Assembly: GCA_011525365.1 (NCBI GenBank)
Contig: WTGQ01000002.1
Location: 473,064 to 537,063, forward strand
Source: Acidobacteriota bacterium
GTDB taxonomy: Bacteria > Acidobacteriota > Thermoanaerobaculia > Multivoradales > Multivoraceae
DNA length: 64,000 bases
Direction of reading: 5' to 3'
Shown here: piece after piece, positions 6,237 to 63,754 of the stretch
How positions within the stretch are numbered: the stretch's first letter is position 1
Layout: every line of letters begins with the position of its first letter
Notes under the pieces: model-generated
What the model was told of the DNA's origin: nothing
Seen by the model: only the letters and a program-made list of their open reading frames with translations
Databases searched by the model: none
Made by a program: the position numbers and the translations under genes

Positions 6237-6524
6237 ATGTGCAGGAACATCCGCGTCCTCTACAACTTCGAACCGCCTGCCAACGAGGGGGAAGTGCGCG
6301 CCGCGGCTCTGCAGTACGTGCGCAAGGTCAGCGGTTCGACGAAGCCGTCGCGCGCCAACGAAGCCGCCTTCGAACGGGCGGTCGACGCCGTCGCTGAGGT
6401 GACTACCCGGTTGCTCCAGGAACTCACGACGACCGCGCCGCCTCGCAACCGGGAGGCCGAAGCGGAGAAGGCGCGTGAGCGCTGGCGGCGGCGCCAGCAA
6501 CGGATCGCCGCGGCTTCGGCGTAA
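6237..6524 (+). CDS. DUF2277-like small protein
   Basis: 95 aa beginning 'MCRNIRVLYNFEPPANEGEVRAAALQYVRKVSGSTKPSRANEAAF', typical of the DUF2277 family. It starts 12 nt after the methyltransferase stop. Confidence 0.6.
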   Translation: MCRNIRVLYNFEPPANEGEVRAAALQYVRKVSGSTKPSRANEAAFERAVDAVAEVTTRLLQELTTTAPPRNREAEAEKARERWRRRQQRIAAASA

Positions 6525-10116: not shown

Positions 10117-10157
10117 ACTCCATAGCTGGCTGGACGGCCGCAACACGGAGGGCACGC

Positions 10158-10754
10158 GTGAAGGCAACGATCGGCTCCCTCACCAACCTGATCGTCATCC
10201 TGGCGATCGTCGGTCCCCTGGCAGTGGCGGGGTCAGCGGCCGGGGCCGAAGCGGAACCGGTCGACCGGAAGCTCCTCGAGCCGGACGATGTCTACCCGGT
10301 CACTTCGGACCAGTTTCGCGCCGTGCTGGACCACCATCGCGGCAAGGTGGTCATGGTGAACATCTGGGCCACGTGGTGCAAGCCTTGCCTGGATGAACTG
10401 CCGGCTCTCGACGGACTGCAGCAGACCTTCGCGGACCGGCTGAAGGTGCTTGCGGTCTCAGCGGATGATCCGAAGGCGATGAAGAAGATCCGGCGCTACT
10501 TCACGAAGAACGCTCCCGGTCTGATCTCGTACGTCGCGGTCGGGCCACCGCTTGAGCAAGGCCGAAAGAAGAAAAGGGAGCGGTGGGAGGAGGGAAGGGA
10601 GTTCATCCGCGCGTTCTACGAGAACTGGCCGTCCAAGTTCCCGACGACCCTGATCTACGATGCGGAGGGCCGGCTCGTGGAGACCGTGGTCGGCACGCGC
10701 ACCTACCTCCAGTTCGCGAGGCTGTTCGAAGGGGCGCTCGAAACCGAGCCCTAG
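10158..10754 (+). CDS. TlpA-family thiol:disulfide oxidoreductase (thioredoxin fold), membrane-anchored
   Basis: An N-terminal TM/signal is followed by the WATWCKPC active site (WCxxC). Confidence 0.85.
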   Translation: MKATIGSLTNLIVILAIVGPLAVAGSAAGAEAEPVDRKLLEPDDVYPVTSDQFRAVLDHHRGKVVMVNIWATWCKPCLDELPALDGLQQTFADRLKVLAVSADDPKAMKKIRRYFTKNAPGLISYVAVGPPLEQGRKKKRERWEEGREFIRAFYENWPSKFPTTLIYDAEGRLVETVVGTRTYLQFARLFEGALETEP

Positions 10755-13632: not shown

Positions 13633-14682
13633 ATGACCCTCGACTCCACGAGTGGCGGCACGTCTACGGTCGCGGTCAGCGACCGCCTCGGCCGGCCGGT
13701 GCGCGACCTGCGCATCTCGGTCATCGACCGCTGCAACTTCCGCTGCACCTTCTGCATGCCCGCGGACCGGGAGTACAGGTTCCTGCCCCGGCAGCAGTTG
13801 ATGACGTTCGAGGAGATCGAGCGCCTGGTCCGGCTGTTCGTGCAGCTCGGTGTTCGCAAGCTGCGGCTGACGGGCGGCGAACCGCTGCTGCGGCGGGACA
13901 TTGAGGATCTGGTTGGGCTCCTGTCCGCGGTGCCGGGAGTCGAGGACCTCGCCCTGACGACGAACGGCGCCCTGCTGGCGAAGAAGTCCCGGGTGCTTGC
14001 CGAGGCCGGCCTCAACCGGGTGACCGTCAGCGTCGAGTCCCTGCACGATGACGTCTTTGGTCGCGTCACAGGATTGGGCCACGGCGTCGGCCAGGTGCTC
14101 GAAGGCATCGACGCCGCGGCGGACGCCGGCCTCGGCCCGGTCAAGATCAACACGGTCGTCATGAAGGGAACGAACGAGGACGAAGTCGCCGACATCGCGG
14201 GCTACTTCAAGGAGCGCGGCCACATCGTCCGCTTCATCGAGTTCATGGACGTCGGCACGGTGAACGACTGGAGCCTCGACCAGGTCGTCACTGCCTCGGA
14301 GATCGCTGACCGCATCGCCGAACGGTGGCCCTTCGAACCCGTCGACCGCGCCCAGCGCAGCGACGTCGCCGAACGCTTCCGCTACCTCGACGACGGCGTC
14401 GAGTTCGGCGTCATCCCCTCGATCAGTCGCCCTTTCTGCGGCGACTGCGCCCGGGCCCGCCTCTCCTCCGACGGCCGGCTCTACACCTGCCTCTTCGCCG
14501 ACACCGGACCCTCGCTGAGGGACCGCCTCCGCGCCGGCGCCACGGACGACGAGCTACTCGCCTTCCTCGCCGCCCACTGGCGCCAGCGCGAAGACCGCTA
14601 CTCCGAGGTCCGCGCCGAACGCCTCCGCGCCGGCCTGCAGCCGGCTCCCCAGCGCGTCGAGATGTTCCGCATCGGCGGCTGA
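13633..14682 (+). CDS. moaA: GTP 3',8-cyclase MoaA (radical SAM)
   Basis: It has the CNFRCTFC radical-SAM cluster motif and the C-terminal CGDCARAR second-cluster motif. Full-length MoaA architecture. Confidence 0.93.
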   Translation: MTLDSTSGGTSTVAVSDRLGRPVRDLRISVIDRCNFRCTFCMPADREYRFLPRQQLMTFEEIERLVRLFVQLGVRKLRLTGGEPLLRRDIEDLVGLLSAVPGVEDLALTTNGALLAKKSRVLAEAGLNRVTVSVESLHDDVFGRVTGLGHGVGQVLEGIDAAADAGLGPVKINTVVMKGTNEDEVADIAGYFKERGHIVRFIEFMDVGTVNDWSLDQVVTASEIADRIAERWPFEPVDRAQRSDVAERFRYLDDGVEFGVIPSISRPFCGDCARARLSSDGRLYTCLFADTGPSLRDRLRAGATDDELLAFLAAHWRQREDRYSEVRAERLRAGLQPAPQRVEMFRIGG

Positions 14683-14892
14683 GCCGCGCGTCGGCGAAGC
14701 GACCCCCTGGGCACCCCTCCCCCCGGTCCCGCCGCGGGCTGGGCGTCGTCGACGTTCGTCACACGGACTGCCGGTGCGCCGGCCTTCTGGCCGGCTTCTG
14801 GAGCCGCGGGAACATGCAGAGATCGAGTACCCTCGCCGCTTCACGGACGGGCCGTGGTCTGAACTGCGCCTGGCAGAGTAGGGGATCGCAAA

Positions 14893-16587: not shown

Positions 16588-16854
16588 ATGACGACCTTCG
16601 ACACGCTTGCGGCGGCGCGGACTCTCGAAGGTGCCGGCATGGATCCGGCGCAGGCAGCAGCGGTGACCGAGACGATACGGTCCGCCGCAACGGAGGGGGT
16701 CGCGACTCGATCCGACTTGGCCGAGTTGCGCGGCGATCTGGCCGAACTACGCGGCGATCTGGGCGCGATGGAGGCTCGTCTCACGTGGCGCATGGTGCTC
16801 GTCGCCGGCGCAGTCACGGCCTTGGTTACCGCGCTGGATCGCCTGCTCGGTTGA
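16588..16854 (+). CDS. Small coiled-coil protein with a C-terminal transmembrane anchor (DUF1640-like)
   Basis: 88 aa. It contains a tandem heptad 'LAELRGD LAELRGD' followed by a hydrophobic tail 'MVLVAGAVTALVTALDRLL'. GC3 is high, consistent with coding. Confidence 0.5.
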   Translation: MTTFDTLAAARTLEGAGMDPAQAAAVTETIRSAATEGVATRSDLAELRGDLAELRGDLGAMEARLTWRMVLVAGAVTALVTALDRLLG

Positions 16855-17071
16855 GCACTTCGAGACCGCTCTCTTCGAGAACGCGGTCCATGATCCCCTG
16901 CTCACAGCAGCCCTCGATGAACAGGGCCAGAGCCTCCTGCAGCATGGTCATCGCTTCTTCGGCCGTGGAGCCTTGGCTGGCTACGTGAAGCTGTGGACAC
17001 GAGGCGACCCATGCGTCCCGCTCGCGGTGCAGTTTCGCGGGAAGTTCGTAACTGAGGTCGGTGCAGATCAC
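16826..17071 (-). CDS. HicB-like (UPF0150) antitoxin-family protein, no cognate HicA detected
   Basis: 'DAWVASCPQLHVASQGSTAEEAMTMLQEALALFIEG' matches the HicB N-terminal RNase H-like fold. A perfect AGGAGG RBS sits 6 nt upstream of the GTG at 17069-71. Its 3' end overlaps the convergent small ORF by about 29 nt. Confidence 0.65.
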   Translation of the reverse strand: MICTDLSYELPAKLHRERDAWVASCPQLHVASQGSTAEEAMTMLQEALALFIEGCCEQGIMDRVLEESGLEVLNRAGDPAR

Positions 17072-17248
17072 GCAGCACCTCCTGGGGGCGGGATGCAACC
17101 TAGCACGCGGCTGGTGTGGTGTCGGGACCACGTCCCAGTGGCCGCTTCGGGCGGGTCTCACGGAAGCCGCATCCGACCGTGAACGCTCCACTTACGCGAA
17201 TTCCGGTACAGTGCCGCGCATGTGTAGCCGCAAGATCGGGGCGGTCGC

Positions 17249-18292
17249 TTGAGTACCCGTCCGCTGCTGGCGGCGGCGGAGGGTGAGCGGGACCGCAAGG
17301 CCGAGCACATCCGGCTGGCGCTGGATCGGCGCATGCAGGTCGAGCGCAGCTACTTCGACGACTACCGGTTCGAGCACAGGGCGCTGCCGGAGATCGACTT
17401 CGACGACGTCCGGATCGGCTGCGGCTTCCTGGGACGGGAGCTCGAGGCGCCGCTGCTCATCTCGTGCATGACGGGGGGGACCGGCGCCGCGGAGGAGATC
17501 AACCGCCGCCTGGCTGAGGCGGCCGAGGCGAGGCGGGTCGCTCTCGGCGTCGGCTCGCAGCGCAAGGCGATCGACGATCCGGAGACCGCGGCGACGTTCC
17601 GGGTGCGGGAGTTCGCTCCCAGCGTGCCGATCCTGGCCAATCTGGGCGCGGTGCAACTGAACTACGGCTACGGCATCGACGAGTGCCGCGTGGCGGTCGA
17701 CATGATCGAGGCGGACGCGCTGGTGCTGCACCTGAACGCGCTGCAGGAGGCGCTGCAGCCGGAGGGGCAACTGAACTTCCGCGGACTGCTGCCGAAGATC
17801 GCTCGCGTGGTCGAAGCACTGGACGTGCCGGTGGTGGTCAAGGAGATCGGTTGCGGCATCTCGGCCACTGTCGGCCGGCAACTCGCCAACGTGGGCGTGC
17901 GGATCCTCGACACGGCCGGCGTCGGAGGCACGAGCTGGGCGCGGATCGAGGCGGCCCGGGCCGATGAGGTGGCTCTCGGCGAACGCTTCGCCGACTGGGG
18001 GGTGCCGACGCCGGAGTCGATCCGCCAGTTGGCGGCGGTGCCCGGCGTCCAGGTGATCGGCAGCGGCGGCATTCGCTCCGGCGTCGACGCGGCGAAGGCG
18101 CTGGCCCTCGGCGCCGACGTCGCCGGTATGGCATTCCCGTTCCTGGAGGCTGCCAACGCGTCGACCGAGGCGGTCGTCGACCGGATCTCCCGCACCGCCT
18201 TCGAGCTGCGTACGTGCATGTTCTGCACCGGCGCGGCCGACCTCACGGCGTTGCGCCGCGTGCCGCTCCTGAAGGAGACGGGCGATGGCTGA
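17249..18292 (+). CDS. fni: Type 2 isopentenyl-diphosphate delta-isomerase (FMN-dependent)
   Basis: An FMN-binding TIM-barrel enzyme with typical IDI-2 blocks 'ISCMTGGTGAA', 'NLGAVQL' and 'GSGGIRSGVDAAKALALGAD'. Confidence 0.9.
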   Translation: MSTRPLLAAAEGERDRKAEHIRLALDRRMQVERSYFDDYRFEHRALPEIDFDDVRIGCGFLGRELEAPLLISCMTGGTGAAEEINRRLAEAAEARRVALGVGSQRKAIDDPETAATFRVREFAPSVPILANLGAVQLNYGYGIDECRVAVDMIEADALVLHLNALQEALQPEGQLNFRGLLPKIARVVEALDVPVVVKEIGCGISATVGRQLANVGVRILDTAGVGGTSWARIEAARADEVALGERFADWGVPTPESIRQLAAVPGVQVIGSGGIRSGVDAAKALALGADVAGMAFPFLEAANASTEAVVDRISRTAFELRTCMFCTGAADLTALRRVPLLKETGDG

Positions 18293-19562
18293 TCGGCCGG
18301 TGTCCGGCTCTGAACTGGCTCCCGAACTCGAGGCTGCTGCGGCCGAGATCGCCGGCTCGGAGCGCGGCTTCCACAGGCCGCCGCCCGGTCTCGACGCGGC
18401 GGGGCAGGCCGCGGTGCGGCGCCGGGCTCTGGACCTGGCGACGGGCAGCGGTCCGCTCACGGCGATCGGCAGCTACGCCCTGGACGGCGAACGGGCGTCT
18501 ACCCAGAACTGCGAGAACTTCATCGGCGCCGCTCAGGTGCCGATGGGCGTCGCCGGACCGGTTCACGTACGCGGGAGCGAGATCGCCGGCACGGTGTGCG
18601 TGCCGATGGCGACCACCGAGGGGGCGCTGCTTGCCAGCGTGAACCGCGGCTGTCGCGCGATCACGGCCGCAGGCGGTGCCACCGTCTTCGTCGAGGACGT
18701 GGGCATGACCCGGGCGCCGGTCTTCCGCACCACGGGGATCGAGGATACCCGGCGGCTGCTCGAGTGGCTGGAAGCCAACGAGGAGAGGATCCGCGCCAAG
18801 GCGCAGGAGACGAGCCGCTACCTGAAGCTCCTGGAGATTCGCCCGTCGGTGGTCGGAAGCACCGTGTTTCTGCGCTTCCGCTTCGCCACCGGCGACGCGA
18901 TGGGCATGAACATGGTGACGATCGCCTGCGACCGGCTGGTGTCGGAGCTGATCGAGCCGGAGACCGGCGCCCAGTGCGTCGCGCTGTCGGGGAACTACTG
19001 TGTCGACAAGAAACCCTCCGCGGTCAACTACCAGCTCGGTCGGGGCAAGCGGATTCATGCCGAGGTCGTGCTGGACGAGACGACCGTGCGCAAGGTCCTC
19101 AAGTCGGAGGCGAAGGCACTCCAGGACGTGGCCTACCGCAAGAACCTGCTCGGTTCCGTGGCGGCCGGCGCGCTCGCCTTCAACGCGCAGTTCGCGAACG
19201 TGCTCGCGGCGGTCTTCGTCGCCTGCGGCCAGGATCTCGCGCACGTCGTCGAGGGCGCCATGGGCGTCGCCTCGTTCGAGGCGCGGGAAGACGGCTCGGT
19301 CTACGCGTCCGTCTACATGCCGGATTGCCCGCTGGCCGCGATCGGCGGCGGCACCGGTCTCGACACCCAGCGCGAGGCGCTCGAGGTGATGGGCGTGCGG
19401 CCGGACGCGGCGCGGCCGGGCGCCGCGGTGCGCCGGCTGGCCGAGATCGTCGGCGCGGTCGTCCTGGCCGGCGAACTCTCCCTGACCGCGGCGTTCACGT
19501 CGCGTGACCTGGCGCGCGCCCACGAGCGGCTGGGCCGCTCCAGCGCGGCACGCGCGGGTTGA
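18285..19562 (+). CDS. hmgR: Hydroxymethylglutaryl-CoA reductase
   Basis: HMGR catalytic blocks are present: 'ENFIGAAQVPMGVAGP', 'DAMGMNMVT', 'GNYCVDKKPSAVN' and 'GGGT'. Confidence 0.92.
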   Translation: MADRPVSGSELAPELEAAAAEIAGSERGFHRPPPGLDAAGQAAVRRRALDLATGSGPLTAIGSYALDGERASTQNCENFIGAAQVPMGVAGPVHVRGSEIAGTVCVPMATTEGALLASVNRGCRAITAAGGATVFVEDVGMTRAPVFRTTGIEDTRRLLEWLEANEERIRAKAQETSRYLKLLEIRPSVVGSTVFLRFRFATGDAMGMNMVTIACDRLVSELIEPETGAQCVALSGNYCVDKKPSAVNYQLGRGKRIHAEVVLDETTVRKVLKSEAKALQDVAYRKNLLGSVAAGALAFNAQFANVLAAVFVACGQDLAHVVEGAMGVASFEAREDGSVYASVYMPDCPLAAIGGGTGLDTQREALEVMGVRPDAARPGAAVRRLAEIVGAVVLAGELSLTAAFTSRDLARAHERLGRSSAARAG

Positions 19563-19587
19563 ACCGGAAGCACCGGCGTGGCTGCCG

Positions 19588-19762
19588 CCTGTCCACGGGC
19601 CGTTGGGGAGGGTCCCCAGCGGCCGCTCCCGCTCCCTGATTGGATGAGAGGTTGGCGCTCGCTCCGCTCCGCTCGCTTCGGTAGGGCTCGGTTTCGGGGG
19701 CGTTCGCGGAAGTCGCTCGCTCCGAGTCCGCTGGGAACCCTCCCCAACGGCCCGCCGACAGG
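19588..19762. repeat. Intergenic element (~175 bp) with 35-nt imperfect terminal inverted repeats; MITE-like or a long RNA hairpin
   Basis: The left arm is cctgtccacgggccgttggggagggtccccagcgg (19588-19622). The reverse complement of the right arm (19728-19762) matches it at 32 of 35 positions. The ~105-bp core is rich in cgctcgctccg-type direct repeats. Confidence 0.6.
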
Positions 19763-19792
19763 CTGGATACCGTCGGGCTTTCGGGTCGCTCG

Positions 19793-20947
19793 ATGACCGG
19801 GGATGTGGCGTCCGCGGTGCGGTTGAGCGTGCCGGGCAAGGTGATCCTGATGGGGGAGCACGCGGCCGTCTATGGAAGGCCGGCAGTGGTGGCGGCGGTC
19901 GGACGCCGGCTGGTTGTCGAAGGGGATCTCGGGCCGTCGGCCGTTGGTACGGACAAGGGCCGCGTGCGCCTCGACCTGCCCGACCTCGGTCTCGACGAGG
20001 AGCACTCATGGGGGGCGATCGACGAGTTCACCAGGCGGGCGCGCCGGCGGTGGCACGCTTTCCGTCGGGGTCAGGCGTCCTTTAGGCCGGCGGACGAACT
20101 GAGCGCTCTTGTCAGGATCGCGGTCGGGGAAGCGGTGGCTTCGCTGCCCGAAGTGGCCGTGAGCAGGCTGCGGGAGCAGACACTGGAACTGCGGGTGCAA
20201 TCAGCGATTCCGGTCGGTGCCGGCCTGGGCAGCTCAGCGGCGTCGGCGATCGGGGTGGTGGCGGCGGTGCGGTTTCTAGCCGGCGGGACGCGGTCGGTTC
20301 CGAGTCATGCAGGCGGCCTGAGCGAAGATGAACTGGCTGCAATCGAGGCGACGGCGCTCGAGGTCGAGCGCCGGCAGCACGGTTTCCCGTCGGGGATCGA
20401 TAGCGGTACGGTGCTCCGTGGTGGCGTTCTGCTCGTCCGCCGTATGGGTGACGAGTTGCGATTCGACGACTTGCCGCGGCCGAAGTGGCTTCGCCGCGCG
20501 GTCGAGATCCTCGACAGCGGGACTCCAAGCCAGACCACGGGTGCGGTGGTCACGGCGGTGCGACGGCGCTACGAGGAAGAGCCCGAGCGGACGACCGCCG
20601 TGTTCGACCGCATCGAAGCGGCGGTGGAGTCCTTTCGCGCGGCGCTCGGGGACGGCGGGCCGCGGGATGCGGCTGCCGCCATCGCCGACGGTCATCGCGC
20701 CCTGGTGGAACTCGGCGTGGTGCCGCCGGCGGTCGCTCGCCGGATCGCGTCGGTGGAAGCTGCCGGGGGCGCGGCCAAGATCTCCGGGGCCGGGACCCTT
20801 GAAGGGGAGTCGGCCGGTGCCCTGATCTGCATGCTCGCGGGCCGGTCGACCGGGACGATCGATGGAATCTCGGACCTCGAGTCTGTAAACGCGGCCATCG
20901 GCGCCGGCGGCCTGAGGTTCGAGAGTCCCGCCGCCGATCGACTGTAG
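19793..20947 (+). CDS. mvk: Mevalonate kinase (GHMP kinase)
   Basis: 'PGKVILMGEHAAVYG' is the N-terminal substrate motif. 'PVGAGLGSSAASAIGV' is the GHMP ATP-binding motif. Confidence 0.9.
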   Translation: MTGDVASAVRLSVPGKVILMGEHAAVYGRPAVVAAVGRRLVVEGDLGPSAVGTDKGRVRLDLPDLGLDEEHSWGAIDEFTRRARRRWHAFRRGQASFRPADELSALVRIAVGEAVASLPEVAVSRLREQTLELRVQSAIPVGAGLGSSAASAIGVVAAVRFLAGGTRSVPSHAGGLSEDELAAIEATALEVERRQHGFPSGIDSGTVLRGGVLLVRRMGDELRFDDLPRPKWLRRAVEILDSGTPSQTTGAVVTAVRRRYEEEPERTTAVFDRIEAAVESFRAALGDGGPRDAAAAIADGHRALVELGVVPPAVARRIASVEAAGGAAKISGAGTLEGESAGALICMLAGRSTGTIDGISDLESVNAAIGAGGLRFESPAADRL

Positions 20948-20959
20948 GCTCCGGGAGAG

Positions 20960-22012
20960 ATGAACTCCGCGTTGGAACCGGCCCATGAGCCTGGGCCCGT
21001 GACGGCCGAGGCGCCCTCGAACATCGCCTTCATCAAGTACTGGGGCGCCCGCGATCTCAAGGGTCCGGTTCCCTTCAATCGCTCGCTGTCGATGACCCTG
21101 GACGCCTGCCGGTCGATCTGCTCGGCGTCTCCCCTGGCCACTGGACAGGACGACGAGATCGTGTGGCTGGAAGAGCCGGCAGCTGGTCGAACCGAAGCCG
21201 CCGGCGAAGCGCCGCCGGCCTTCGTCGAGCGGACGCGGCGGCACCTGGACCGGCTGCGCGAGTGGTCGCGGCAGACGGCGGCGCCGTACAGGGGTGGGTT
21301 CCGGATCGCGACCGGCAACACGTTCCCGGCGGCGGCCGGGATCGCCTCTTCCGCTTCGGGCTTCACCGCCCTGACCCTCGCCGTGACGGCCGCCATGGGC
21401 TTCGACCTGCGGCCGCGGACCCTGTCCGCCCTGTCGCGGAGCAGCGGCTCGGGTTCGGCCGCCCGTTCGGCCTACGGTGGCTACGTGGAGTGGCCCGACG
21501 GGAACGACAACAGCGCGGTTCAGGTCCTGGACGAGGCCGCCTGGCCGCTCTGCGATGTGGTCGCCGTCGTCGAGACCGGCGCCAAGAAGGTGTCTTCACG
21601 CGACGGGCACCAGCTCGCGGTCAGCAGCCCGTACTTCGGGCCGCGTCTGGACGCGATCGAGGAGCGCCTGGAAAAGGTGCGCGTTGCGCTCAGGCAGCGC
21701 GACTTCGAGGCCCTGGGGCCGGCGATCGAGGAGGAGGGGATCGACCTCCACCTGATCGCGATGTCGTCCAGGCCACCGGTGTACTACTGGACACCGGGCA
21801 CGATCGAGGTGCTGGCCGCGGTGCGCGATCTGCGCGCGGAAGGCCTGGCGGCCTACGCCACGATGGATGCGGGCGCGAACGTCCACGTGATCTGCCAGCC
21901 GGCCGACGAATCGCGGGTAGCGGAACGGCTCTTGGCACTCGGCAGCGTCGAGCGGGTGCTGCGCGACTGCACCGGCGGCCCGCCGGCGTGGCGCCGCGGA
22001 GCCGGGCTTTGA
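20960..22012 (+). CDS. mvaD: Diphosphomevalonate decarboxylase family (MVD, or phosphomevalonate decarboxylase)
   Basis: 'APSNIAFIKYWGARD' and 'AAAGIASSASGF' are the GHMP/MVD hallmarks. Confidence 0.88.
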   Translation: MNSALEPAHEPGPVTAEAPSNIAFIKYWGARDLKGPVPFNRSLSMTLDACRSICSASPLATGQDDEIVWLEEPAAGRTEAAGEAPPAFVERTRRHLDRLREWSRQTAAPYRGGFRIATGNTFPAAAGIASSASGFTALTLAVTAAMGFDLRPRTLSALSRSSGSGSAARSAYGGYVEWPDGNDNSAVQVLDEAAWPLCDVVAVVETGAKKVSSRDGHQLAVSSPYFGPRLDAIEERLEKVRVALRQRDFEALGPAIEEEGIDLHLIAMSSRPPVYYWTPGTIEVLAAVRDLRAEGLAAYATMDAGANVHVICQPADESRVAERLLALGSVERVLRDCTGGPPAWRRGAGL

Positions 22013-22884
22013 GTGCGGCCGCCGCCGAGCGCGCCTGGGACGAGCGGCTGGACGTCACCCTGGTCAAGCTCGGCGGCAGCCTGATCACGGACAAGACGAA
22101 GCCGCGCACGGTCGCGAACGAACACCTGCGGCGGCTGGCGGCCGAGATCGCTGCCGGTTGGTCGGGGAACGGCCTCGTGGTCGGTCACGGCAGCGGTTCC
22201 TTCGGACACCCGGAGGCGCGCGCGGCCGGCCTGGCCGGCGGTGGCGGTGCCCGTCCGGACTCGGCCCTGGACCGGATGGGCGTTGCGCGCACGCAGTCCG
22301 CGGCCTTCGAGCTTCACCGGCTGGTCGTCGGAAGCCTGGTCGAGGCGGGTGTGCCTGCCTACTCGCAACTGCCGTCCGGCTTTCTGACCGCCTGTGACGG
22401 GGAGCCTGACGGACCGCCGCCCGCACCGCTGGCCGCGGCGCTGAGGCAGGGCCTGGTGCCGGTCACGATGGGCGATGTCGTCGTCGACCGGACGCGCGGG
22501 GCTTCGATCGCGTCGACGGAGACGGTGTTCGAGTTCCTTGCCCGCGCCCTCGTTCCGCTCGGTATCGAGGTGCGACGGGCGTTGTGGCTCGGTGCCACGG
22601 CCGGTGTGCTGGACGGCGCGGGCCGGCTCGTTCCCCGCATCGACGCGGCGAACATCGGCGCGGCGTCGGAGGCTGCCGGCGGCTCACCGGCGGTCGATGT
22701 CACCGGTGGCATGGAGCACCGCCTGGCGACTGCCTGGGCGCTGGCCCGGCGCGGCGTCGAATCGCTCATCATCGACGGGCGCCGGCCCGGCCTCCTCGAG
22801 TCGGCGCTTCGGCGCCCGAACGGGGAGGCGGAGAGCGCCGGTACACTCGTGCGTCCGAGCGAGGTGGAAGATGCGCGCCAGTAG
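22009..22884 (+). CDS. ipk: Isopentenyl phosphate kinase (amino-acid-kinase fold)
   Basis: 'VTLVKLGGSLITDK' is the AAK N-terminal glycine loop. 'VVGHGSGSFGH' is the IPK His-containing motif. The TTG start overlaps the mvaD stop. Confidence 0.8.
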   Translation: MSAAAAERAWDERLDVTLVKLGGSLITDKTKPRTVANEHLRRLAAEIAAGWSGNGLVVGHGSGSFGHPEARAAGLAGGGGARPDSALDRMGVARTQSAAFELHRLVVGSLVEAGVPAYSQLPSGFLTACDGEPDGPPPAPLAAALRQGLVPVTMGDVVVDRTRGASIASTETVFEFLARALVPLGIEVRRALWLGATAGVLDGAGRLVPRIDAANIGAASEAAGGSPAVDVTGGMEHRLATAWALARRGVESLIIDGRRPGLLESALRRPNGEAESAGTLVRPSEVEDARQ

Positions 22885-23548
22885 CACCGTCGAGGACTAC
22901 CTGAAGTGCATCTTCCTGGCGGAGCATGAAGCCCGGATGGAGGGTGCGGAGCTCGTACCGATGGGACGGATCGCGGCGCGCCTCAAGGTGGCTCCCGCCT
23001 CGGTCACGGCGATGATGAAGACCCTCGCCGAGTCCGGACTGATCGCCTACGAACCGTACAGCGGCGTCCGACTCCTGCCGGCGGGTCGCAAGCTGGCGAC
23101 TCACGTGCTCAGGCGGCATCGGCTGATCGAGCTCTTCCTGGTCAACGTGATGGGGTTCGACTGGAGCGAGGTCCACTCCGAGGCCGAGCTGCTCGAGCAC
23201 TCCGTTTCCGGGCGGATGATCGAACGGATGGACGAGATGCTCGGCCATCCGTCGGTGGATCCCCACGGCGATCCGATTCCGAGCGCCGACGGTCACATCG
23301 AGCTCGTCGATCATCCGAGCCTGTTGAAGTGTGCCTTGAACCAGGTCGTCGAGGTGGTCCGGGTGACGGACCAGAACGCCGAGTTCCTGCGCTTCGCGGA
23401 GCGCGAAGGGTTGATGCCCGGCAGCCTGGTTGAGGTGGCGGCGCGGGACGAGACGGCCGGCAGCGTTGCCGTGGTTTCGGATGCGCGCGAGTTCAGCCTG
23501 GGCTTTCCCGCCGCGTCCAAGGTGCTCGTGCGCGAAGCGGCGAGCTAG
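22871..23548 (+). CDS. DtxR/MntR-family metal-dependent transcriptional regulator with a C-terminal FeoA/SH3-like domain
   Basis: 'TVEDYLKCIFLAE' and 'VTAMMKTLAESGLIAYEPYSGVRLLPAG' form the DtxR HTH and dimerisation region. The metal-site His/Glu/Cys pattern is present. It overlaps the ipk 3' end by 14 nt. Confidence 0.88.
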   Translation: MRASSTVEDYLKCIFLAEHEARMEGAELVPMGRIAARLKVAPASVTAMMKTLAESGLIAYEPYSGVRLLPAGRKLATHVLRRHRLIELFLVNVMGFDWSEVHSEAELLEHSVSGRMIERMDEMLGHPSVDPHGDPIPSADGHIELVDHPSLLKCALNQVVEVVRVTDQNAEFLRFAEREGLMPGSLVEVAARDETAGSVAVVSDAREFSLGFPAASKVLVREAAS

Positions 23549-62909: not shown

Positions 62910-63754
62910 GGCAGGAGCGACGGCGTCGCACCGGCCTGGACGGCGACGTAGCACACAGGCGTCGCCAGCAGGACGCTGTCGAGCCGGTCCAGCAGCCCGC
63001 CATGCCCGGGCAGAAGGGCCCCCGTGTCCTTGACCGCCACCGCCCGCTTGAGCATCGATTCGACCAGGTCTCCGGCCTGTCCCGCGCCACCGCAGAGCAG
63101 CGCCAGGACGGGGACGTCCAGGCCGAGGGCATCGGGACCGCGCCACACCAGGACCACCGCGACGCCGGCGGCGCAACTGGCGGCCAGACCGCTCACCGCG
63201 CCGGCGATCGTCTTCTTCGGGCTGAGCACCGGCGCCAGAGGTCGGCGTCCGAGCAGGCGGCCGCCGTAGTAGGCGCCGATGTCACCGAGGGAGGCGACGA
63301 CCAGTACCCAGAAGAGGAGCACCGGTTCGACGACATGGAGGTTGATCGCGGCGACCAGGAACAGGCCGAGCCAGAGGGCGCCGTAGGTGAACAGCGCCGA
63401 GGTCAGGAGTCGATCGCGGATGTCGGCATGGCTGGCGAGGCCGACCGCCGTCGCCAGGGCGAGCACGAGGGCCGCCGCGGCGAACCAGGTGCCGGCGCCG
63501 GTCAGGCCGGCCGGCAGTTGTACGTCGATCAGTTCGTTCGCGGTCGTGTCGGCCAGGGCGAGGACGCCGACCGCGAGCCAGAGCGCCCAGTTCACGGTCC
63601 GCGAAACGACGATCCGCTGCACCAGCGCGCTGTACTCGGCGGCTGCCACGAGAACCACGAGCGTGACCGCCACTCCGAACAGGACGGGGTCGAGGTATAG
63701 GACGAGGGCGGCTGCCAGCGCCGCGGTCACGACGCCCGTGACGACGCGTTTCAT
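62906..63754 (-). CDS. cdsA: Phosphatidate cytidylyltransferase
   Basis: Multi-TM. 'SPKKTIAG' and 'PGHGGLLDRLDS' are CdsA signatures. Confidence 0.88.
   Translation of the reverse strand: MKRVVTGVVTAALAAALVLYLDPVLFGVAVTLVVLVAAAEYSALVQRIVVSRTVNWALWLAVGVLALADTTANELIDVQLPAGLTGAGTWFAAAALVLALATAVGLASHADIRDRLLTSALFTYGALWLGLFLVAAINLHVVEPVLLFWVLVVASLGDIGAYYGGRLLGRRPLAPVLSPKKTIAGAVSGLAASCAAGVAVVLVWRGPDALGLDVPVLALLCGGAGQAGDLVESMLKRAVAVKDTGALLPGHGGLLDRLDSVLLATPVCYVAVQAGATPSLLP

Follow-up and report, generated by a model that had tools for sequence, protein, structure and literature searches.

A probable family of dispersed hairpin-forming repeats with a copy between hmgR and mvk in an acidobacterial mevalonate operon

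Bacterial genomes hold several described kinds of small palindromic repeat that resemble the element reported here. REPINs, doublets of REP sequences mobilised by RAYT, are non-coding and intergenic, measure ~70-110 nt, and consist of two inverted halves that form a long hairpin in single-stranded DNA or mRNA; their ends are a conserved REP of ~16-25 nt and their spacer is poorly conserved. They persist vertically for long periods at orthologous sites and leave degenerate singlet remnants; their hairpins show compensatory changes, and their asymmetric excision leaves ~6 bp of the right end behind (PMC3116915). Correia elements (CREE/NEMIS) of Neisseria are AT-rich, ~100-160 bp long, with conserved terminal inverted repeats of 26 nt around a conserved, directional core, TA ends with TA target duplication, and an IHF site. 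They are often co-transcribed with their neighbours, their presence varies between close strains, and in mRNA they are bound or cut by RNase III at the inverted-repeat stem, which changes the fate of the transcript (PMC2649163; PMC10969869). The ERIC or IRU repeats of Enterobacteria are imperfect palindromes in transcribed intergenic regions, including within operons, whose presence at the same site varies among species; ERIC, 127 bp long and found in Gammaproteobacteria only, affects mRNA decay, an effect reported to act through an RNase E site (PMC10969869). Classical MITEs, which derive from insertion sequences by deletion, are small (<~500 bp) and intergenic; they lack a transposase gene, carry terminal inverted repeats and occur several times in a genome.

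The locus that we describe lies in a 64-kb window, the whole stretch of 64,000 nucleotides analysed (69% G+C), whose proteins recur on sponge-type metagenome contigs and have as their closest named homologues proteins of MAGs labelled Holophagales or Acidobacteriota. Within its idi-hmgR-mvk-mvaD-ipk-dtxR operon, a spacer of 230 nt (19563-19792) separates hmgR (HMG-CoA reductase, 18285-19562, + strand; Pfam PF00368, E 2.7e-114) from mvk (GHMP-family kinase, 19793-20947, + strand; Pfam PF00288, homologues annotated as mevalonate kinase), whose start position is conserved among relatives. This is the sole long junction of the operon: idi and hmgR overlap by 8 nt, mvaD and ipk by 4 nt, and ipk and dtxR by 14 nt, and a gap of 12 nt separates mvk from mvaD. 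The spacer holds a long inverted repeat with a left arm at 19587-19622 and a right arm at 19728-19763 (+ strand, 36 nt each), 33/36 positions (92%) being complementary and 105 nt separating the two. No other long, widely spaced inverted repeat is present in the window, and the two arms are the only matches there to a 25-nt arm probe, with 0 expected from shuffles.

The operon as a whole (17249-23548) comprises a type-2 idi (FMN_dh fold), hmgR, a GHMP kinase, a diphosphomevalonate-decarboxylase-like gene, an amino-acid-kinase-fold gene of the isopentenyl phosphate kinase type, and a DtxR-family repressor with an FeoA domain, a gene set that may point to the alternative mevalonate route through isopentenyl phosphate. 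Between 19834 and 20330 its mvk shows mosaic identity to the loci of relatives (L numbers throughout): identity to L089 is 51-60% at 19884-20080 and 91-97% further on, and identity to L085 reaches 95% at 20234-20380, where that to L007 is 67-87%. Set against the uniform 90-98% identity of hmgR to relatives, this pattern suggests recombination among lineages within mvk.

An nhmmer profile built from 11 copies delimits the whole element at 19579-19772 (+ strand, E 2.5e-51), ~195 nt in which the family orientation is that of the operon, and a covariance model (R1) matches 19578-19773 at 196 bits, the next best match in the window scoring 17 bits with filters off. Its 105-nt core (19623-19727, + strand) contains the blocks GGCGCTCGCT, CGCTTCGG, TCGGTT and GTCGCTCG, which fall in invariant columns of the family alignment (A5), and three copies of the motif CGCTCGCTCCG (19656-19666, 19670-19680 and 19714-19724, + strand; repeat families D2 and D4). 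Outside the arms, the octamer TGGCTGCC on the left (19579-19586, + strand) aligns with the conserved left terminus GCACCCGCC; compared with the spacers of the element-free relatives L009 and L087, it is either the outer edge of the element or a direct repeat, now decayed, of the octamer on the right. The right octamer, TGGATACC (19764-19771, + strand), is the counterpart of TGGACGGC in relatives and is a portion of the conserved right terminus CAGGCTGGAC that is still present in element-free relatives. A preliminary description of this DNA had singled out the same junction as the only one neither overlapping nor short, together with a 35-nt inverted repeat (32/35 matches, 19588-19762) that is our feature shifted by one base, and both claims are borne out. 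The 175-bp element that it delimited exists and is longer, ~195 nt by the profile, and the core that it called repeat-rich is so only in the small way of the three copies of CGCTCGCTCCG.

Folding, a check that the same description had proposed, finds the hmgR-mvk spacer (233 nt folded) far more stable than shuffles, with -143.9 kcal/mol (z -5.8) for the + strand and z -7.0 for the - strand. The long stem is extended by an outer helix (19564-19785, + strand) in which 19564-19578 pairs with 19772-19785, with 14 pairs, 89% of cells paired and 0 compensatory changes; its 5' side starts just after the hmgR stop and its 3' side lies 8-21 nt before the mvk start. The sequence of this helix also exists in element-free relatives, and its pairing is predicted for the L009 spacer, where it is no better than in shuffles. 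Folded alone, the 105-nt core is no more stable than shuffles (z +0.2 to +2.4), and because of this we make no claim for inner structure: the inner helices that RNAalifold proposed, G-U-rich on the + strand and 97% paired vs 78% in the mirror structure, were dropped. Rfam gave no match at gathering score anywhere in the window, and a search at E <=10 across 19300-20100 returned a single chance match, to sR19 (11.7 bits vs a threshold of 45).

A small protein gene could in principle occupy the spacer, since a 72-codon ORF (19578-19796) is open in 5/5 orthologous copies and its stop overlaps the mvk start as ATGA, an arrangement typical of this operon. The TGA of this overlap, however, is the second codon of mvk itself and is present in element-free relatives too, and a G+C content of 69% would by itself leave all six frames across the element largely open, as they are. 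The 13 base changes that separate the window from L007 amount to ~11 amino-acid changes in the sole fully open frame; in L088 a 1-nt deletion shifts that frame, and its only internal ATG is not conserved. ORFs crossing the element have no Pfam match, and its six-frame translation found no match among 5.8 billion proteins, a query that is weakly informative because gene callers skip ORFs there and GSGSG linkers probably filled part of the candidate list. On the substitution pattern and the frameshift we reject the coding reading, to which we give practically no credence; the preliminary judgement that coding ORFs here were implausible agrees with the lack of a conserved reading frame.

Loci of relatives, found through contigs encoding close MVK homologues, carry the same element in the hmgR-mvk spacer: L007, L008 and L052 (one species), L085, L088, L089, and L086, whose assembly has a run of N across it. 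A further copy was revealed by the peptide that it adds to an over-extended mvk call (P0010). The distant MVK homologues P0055 and P0068, 64% and 61% identical to the window MVK, have N-terminal extensions that translate element-like sequence; they led to the 21-kb loci L090 and L091, whose copies seeded the family profile. With this profile, nhmmer recovers full-length copies at the hmgR-mvk site in L007/L052, L085, L088, L089, L090 and L091. It also places copies in the mvk-mvaD spacer, in the opposite orientation and with perfect 27-nt arms that differ in sequence (L090 11410-11603, L091 11401-11594), and downstream of moaA at the same syntenic site in two loci (L091 6522-6719, L052 7368-7564). 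Another L052 copy lies just upstream of idi (~6273-6522) and carries a nested insertion of ~75 nt, both extra L052 copies having been found by the profile within 2.5 kb upstream of idi. Copy number per locus is 3 in 8 kb for L052 and 2-3 in 21 kb for L090 and L091, and the arms of these other copies are 22-38 nt long and 85-100% complementary.

Copies at such unrelated sites bear on the idea that the spacer is a dedicated cis-regulatory RNA of the mevalonate operon, for example a riboswitch or attenuator sensing a pathway intermediate. Its location between hmgR and mvk, at the only long junction, and its retention there across a deep phylogenetic split would suit such a role. Paralogous copies downstream of moaA, upstream of idi and, inverted, between mvk and mvaD do not suit it, however; close relatives manage without the element, and no Rfam family matches it. 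We regard this reading as highly improbable and, on the positions of the paralogous copies, as already largely refuted.

The 11-copy alignment gives the conserved family termini as CACCCGCC[T/C]G ... C[A/G]GGCTGGAC, also written CACCCGCCTG (left) ... CAGGCTGGAC (right), and the conserved core blocks as GGCGCTCRCT, CGCTYCGG, TYGGTT and GTCGCTYG. Only ~8-10 nt are invariant at each terminus, and the longest invariant blocks are in the core. The arms are 56-78% identical between sites and retain their complementarity: 14/54 pairs show a compensatory change and 92% of cells are paired, against 36-56% in slid controls; the covariation score is reached by 0/500 shuffles. Among the five orthologous copies, 5 stem pairs have a compensatory double change, and 97% of cells in the long stem are paired.

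Searches beyond these loci recovered little. An exact 22-nt arm pattern found both arms, among 185,579 representative genomes, only in L052, the orthologous locus of the L007 species. The same pattern, GGCCGTNGGGNAGGGTNCCCAG, gave 36 single-arm chance matches in JGI metagenome contigs, a collection from which the source contig itself is absent, and none extended past the pattern. Exact arm patterns are too strict, because arms vary between copies of the family. Neither blastn of the element against plasmids and phages nor the core pattern in viral contigs (0 matches) gave a match, and a literature search for the clade and pathway returned nothing relevant. The window itself, 64 kb from a genome with a longest recorded contig of 3.88 Mb, has no second copy by nhmmer or by the covariance model (<=17 bits elsewhere). 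The preliminary description had read the element as a MITE-like mobile insertion, with further copies in this and related genomes as the check; the window shows none, whereas relatives carry them at further loci, and with presence or absence varying among relatives and no conserved reading frame, the MITE-like character holds in substance. We conclude, with high confidence, that the sequence at 19579-19772 belongs, as one copy, to a dispersed family of non-coding repeats that form hairpins, of the MITE/REPIN type, in a clade of sponge-associated Acidobacteriota. The family is previously undescribed, a new one within the known kind of MITE-like palindromic intergenic repeats.

Several sequences around these loci recall parts of the element. 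In the window, a match to the joined termini at 62928-62945 is a chance one inside a CdsA-like coding sequence (judged by eye, without a domain search). Downstream of moaA (13633-14682), where L052 and L091 carry the full element, 14686-14772 may hold a remnant: by eye, CTGGGCACCCCTCCCC...GGGCTGGGCG within it is collinear with a right arm and terminus, but the alignment scores are not significant (p ~0.06 and 0.47). At 17118-17143, the site of the ~250-nt L052 copy upstream of idi, the window has only ~15 nt, GCCGCTTCGGGCGGG (+), a small hairpin the reverse complement of which contains CCCGCCCG, resembling the family left terminus. The stretch around 16588-17071, also upstream of idi, is variable, and relatives differ there in element content; it holds a small convergent gene pair, one member of which matches DUF7387 and, below the Pfam threshold, a HicB-like antitoxin, and the corresponding stretch of L091 contains a gene for a HicA toxin. 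In L090, directly 3' of the hmgR-mvk element (10117-10176), the right-terminus motif recurs in tandem with a 15-nt period as GGGCTGGACGCCGCA, GGGCTGGGCGGCGGT, GGGCTGGACGGCGCT and GTGCTGGCGGGCTGA. Farther along L090 (20130-20783; also L091 ~20100-20430), an array of 6.7 copies of a 98-nt unit (99% identity) stands just upstream of a UbiA-family gene, overlapping a 246-codon ORF on the opposite strand that has no Pfam match; the unit begins CGCTCGCTCCGG, the conserved core block motif, and the family profile gives weak periodic matches along it. The ~75-nt insertion nested in the L052 copy (~6310-6385) is a palindrome in its own right, CATGTGGCGC AGGGAC GCGCCACATG, and perhaps represents a second family of small repeats.

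The element also leaves traces in public assemblies and annotations. Assemblies break at it: L086 has its run of N across the element (~1888-1980, GCA_009844385.1), and the first position of a Logan contig (L006 1-36) falls within the right arm. Gene callers have extended mvk 13-78 codons into it in P0003, P0005, P0010, P0011, P0055 and P0068.

Element-free hmgR-mvk spacers in two relatives, 44 nt in L009 and 49 nt in L087, share the junction GGC|TGGACGG. A neighbour-joining tree built from hmgR plus mvaD groups both of these loci with carriers: it places L009 together with the window and L007 at 95.5% bootstrap, pairs L087 with its sister L085 at 100%, and has as its outgroup L090 and L091, which carry the element. 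Since carriers surround both element-free loci, and the outgroup has the element too, two losses are more parsimonious than several gains at one site; the tree points to a hmgR-mvk copy that was ancestral to the group and was lost twice, independently and precisely, at the same junction. The “empty” sites were accordingly rejected as pre-insertion sites in favour of secondary loss, and the mobile insertion of the preliminary description, if taken as a recent one into the source genome, does not survive, the copy being ancestral at this site by the gene tree. Both losses retain the last bases of the conserved right terminus. They resemble the asymmetric excision described for REPINs (PMC3116915), or could instead have arisen as a deletion between CGGCGTGG and CAGGCTGG, which are short direct repeats.

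The octamers TGGCTGCC and TGGATACC are identical at 6/8 positions, and both align with conserved family termini. A reading of the two as an 8-bp target-site duplication of TGGACGGC was dropped after the family alignment, because paralogous copies show GGCTGGAC to be the conserved end of the element. At four other copies the flanks match GGACG at 4-5/5 positions, which those of the window copy do not, and no clear target-site duplication was found among the copies compared.

How strongly the element is conserved was judged against fourfold-degenerate sites of idi, hmgR, mvk and mvaD, and in every pair examined the element diverges less. The divergence is 7.0% vs 21.5% at fourfold sites between the window and L007 (p 1e-6), 5.9% vs 26.2% between the window and L085 (p 7e-11), and 28% vs 38.5% between the window and L090 (p 0.009); it is 1.1% vs 11.0% for the mvk-mvaD copy of L090 and L091 (p 1e-6), and 10.1% vs 40% for the moaA copy of L091 and L052 (p 2e-16). 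We take these comparisons to show that the copies are under constraint. For the same pair of clades, identity is 89% in the moaA copy and 70% in the hmgR-mvk copy, a difference for which we offer no explanation. Conservation above the synonymous-site level, together with the compensatory changes in the stem, argues that a force other than neutral decay acts on the copies.

Such conservation has to be weighed against the view that the element is a dead relic of a mobile element without any role, whose hairpin and conservation are by-products, for example of quasi-palindrome correction by template switching. The element is evidently dispensable, two lineages having lost it with the operon intact; family copies are found in either orientation; folding the core by itself gives nothing significant; and single-sided transitions in the long stem give, on the sense strand, mostly C-A mismatches and not G-U pairs. 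As these mismatches show no sense-strand wobble tolerance, they give no positive sign of selection on the sense RNA, and the concerted changes of the two arms could come from correction of the quasi-palindrome at the DNA level. In the core, however, identity between the window and L085 is 98%, as against 74% at fourfold sites, and identity between the window and L007 is 93%; because the unpaired core shares the conservation, arm-to-arm correction cannot be the whole explanation. Nor does a relic sit well with a moaA copy that stays 89% identical across the split while fourfold sites fall to 60%. We consider this explanation rather unlikely.

The same conservation could instead mark a family of self-contained small RNA genes, each transcribed independently and closed by a long stem, whose conserved single-stranded core would bind a protein or a target. 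A covarying stem with conserved loop blocks is the pattern of functional RNAs, conservation exceeds that of synonymous sites, and the copies stand in either orientation relative to neighbouring genes. Against this, neither promoter-like nor terminator-like signals lie at the element, Rfam yields no match to it even at E 10, its core is not thermodynamically structured, and its copies undergo precise loss and differ in presence from one close relative to another. Independent small RNA genes are, in our estimation, very unlikely.

Among the described systems, REPINs and Correia elements come nearest to the element in how it works, yet it qualifies as neither. With REPINs it shares a non-coding intergenic position, two inverted halves predicted to form a long hairpin in single-stranded DNA or mRNA, compensatory changes in that hairpin, long vertical persistence at orthologous sites, candidate degenerate singlet remnants, and losses that leave right-end bases behind, here the TGGACGG of L009 and L087 (cf. 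PMC3116915). In contrast to REPINs, it is about twice as long at ~195 nt, its 105-nt core has conserved blocks, its arms lack an invariant 16-mer, its sequence is not similar to known REPs, and no RAYT gene was seen in the window and the short loci; nor was any other partner transposase identified there. Its resemblance to Correia elements lies in the terminal inverted repeats around a conserved directional core, in its probable co-transcription with neighbours, in its presence or absence between close relatives, and in a stem that would be an RNase III substrate in mRNA, cleavage that is demonstrated for Correia elements (PMC2649163; PMC10969869) and only predicted for this one. Unlike them it is GC-rich and unrelated in sequence, lacks TA ends, a TA target duplication and a recognisable IHF site, and has arms of 36 nt that vary between copies. 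It is like ERIC in being an imperfect palindrome in a probably transcribed intergenic region within an operon, with presence at the same site varying among species, but differs in sequence, in length and in its host phylum. Classical MITEs are matched by its small size, its terminal inverted repeats, the lack of a transposase gene, its intergenic location and the presence of several copies in the genomes of relatives (L052 has 3 within 8 kb); they are not matched by its arms, which vary more than expected of transposase-binding sites around a conserved interior, nor in target-site duplication, which is not established, nor by a parent insertion sequence sharing its ends, the exact arm pattern having matched only the orthologous locus among the representative genomes.

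As a whole, the explanation that we favour, and consider probable, is that the window holds an ancestral copy of a dispersed MITE/REPIN-type repeat that is likely to be transcribed with the operon and would then form a large hairpin in its mRNA. The family would have spread once through a single-stranded hairpin intermediate or a transposase recognising its ends, in the manner of REPIN/IS200 or of a MITE transposase, and the precise losses would be excisions that left the last bases of the right end behind, as for REPINs. The copy lies in sense orientation in a tightly packed operon whose other junctions leave no room for promoters, and for this reason is probably transcribed with it; no promoter-like or terminator-like sites were predicted at 17-24 kb around the element. 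In the transcript it would form a stem of at least 36 bp, the spacer being predicted at ~-144 kcal/mol. That stem would most likely act as a site for an RNase III-type double-strand RNase or as a barrier to 3' exonucleases, and the hairpin, whose outer helix comes within 8 nt of the mvk start, would also occlude the mvk initiation region. The outcome would be differing levels or stabilities of the idi-hmgR and mvk-mvaD-ipk-dtxR parts of the transcript. By analogy with the Correia, ERIC and REP elements, a real effect on operon expression, whether by the processing or attenuation that the preliminary description had proposed or by altered stability, is plausible, though we hold it tentatively and think it somewhat less likely than not.

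A more ambitious version makes the family more than selfish DNA, namely a mobile structured-RNA module, in which a covarying stem presents the conserved single-stranded core of ~105 nt and which has been domesticated to cut the polycistronic transcript. The host would have kept such a module for very long in or near the mevalonate operon, with transcript units that differ in stability or translation; in the L090/L091 clade, elements bracket mvk on both sides. We judge this unlikely; if true, an uncultured symbiont lineage would have used a domesticated repeat to shape the architecture of an operon.

The dispersed-repeat reading has a practical side, in that the element breaks assemblies and has led gene callers to over-extend mvk in public MAGs. 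If it is right, a GC-rich family from an uncultured symbiont phylum joins the hairpin repeats of bacteria, such as REP/REPIN, ERIC and Correia. The operon genes involved surround the rate-controlling step of isoprenoid synthesis, and the relatives offer a natural experiment, in which the same operon has zero elements (by precise loss), one, or two (in L090 and L091, with the second in the mvk-mvaD spacer). This series allows a direct test of whether such repeats tune relative gene expression within an operon.
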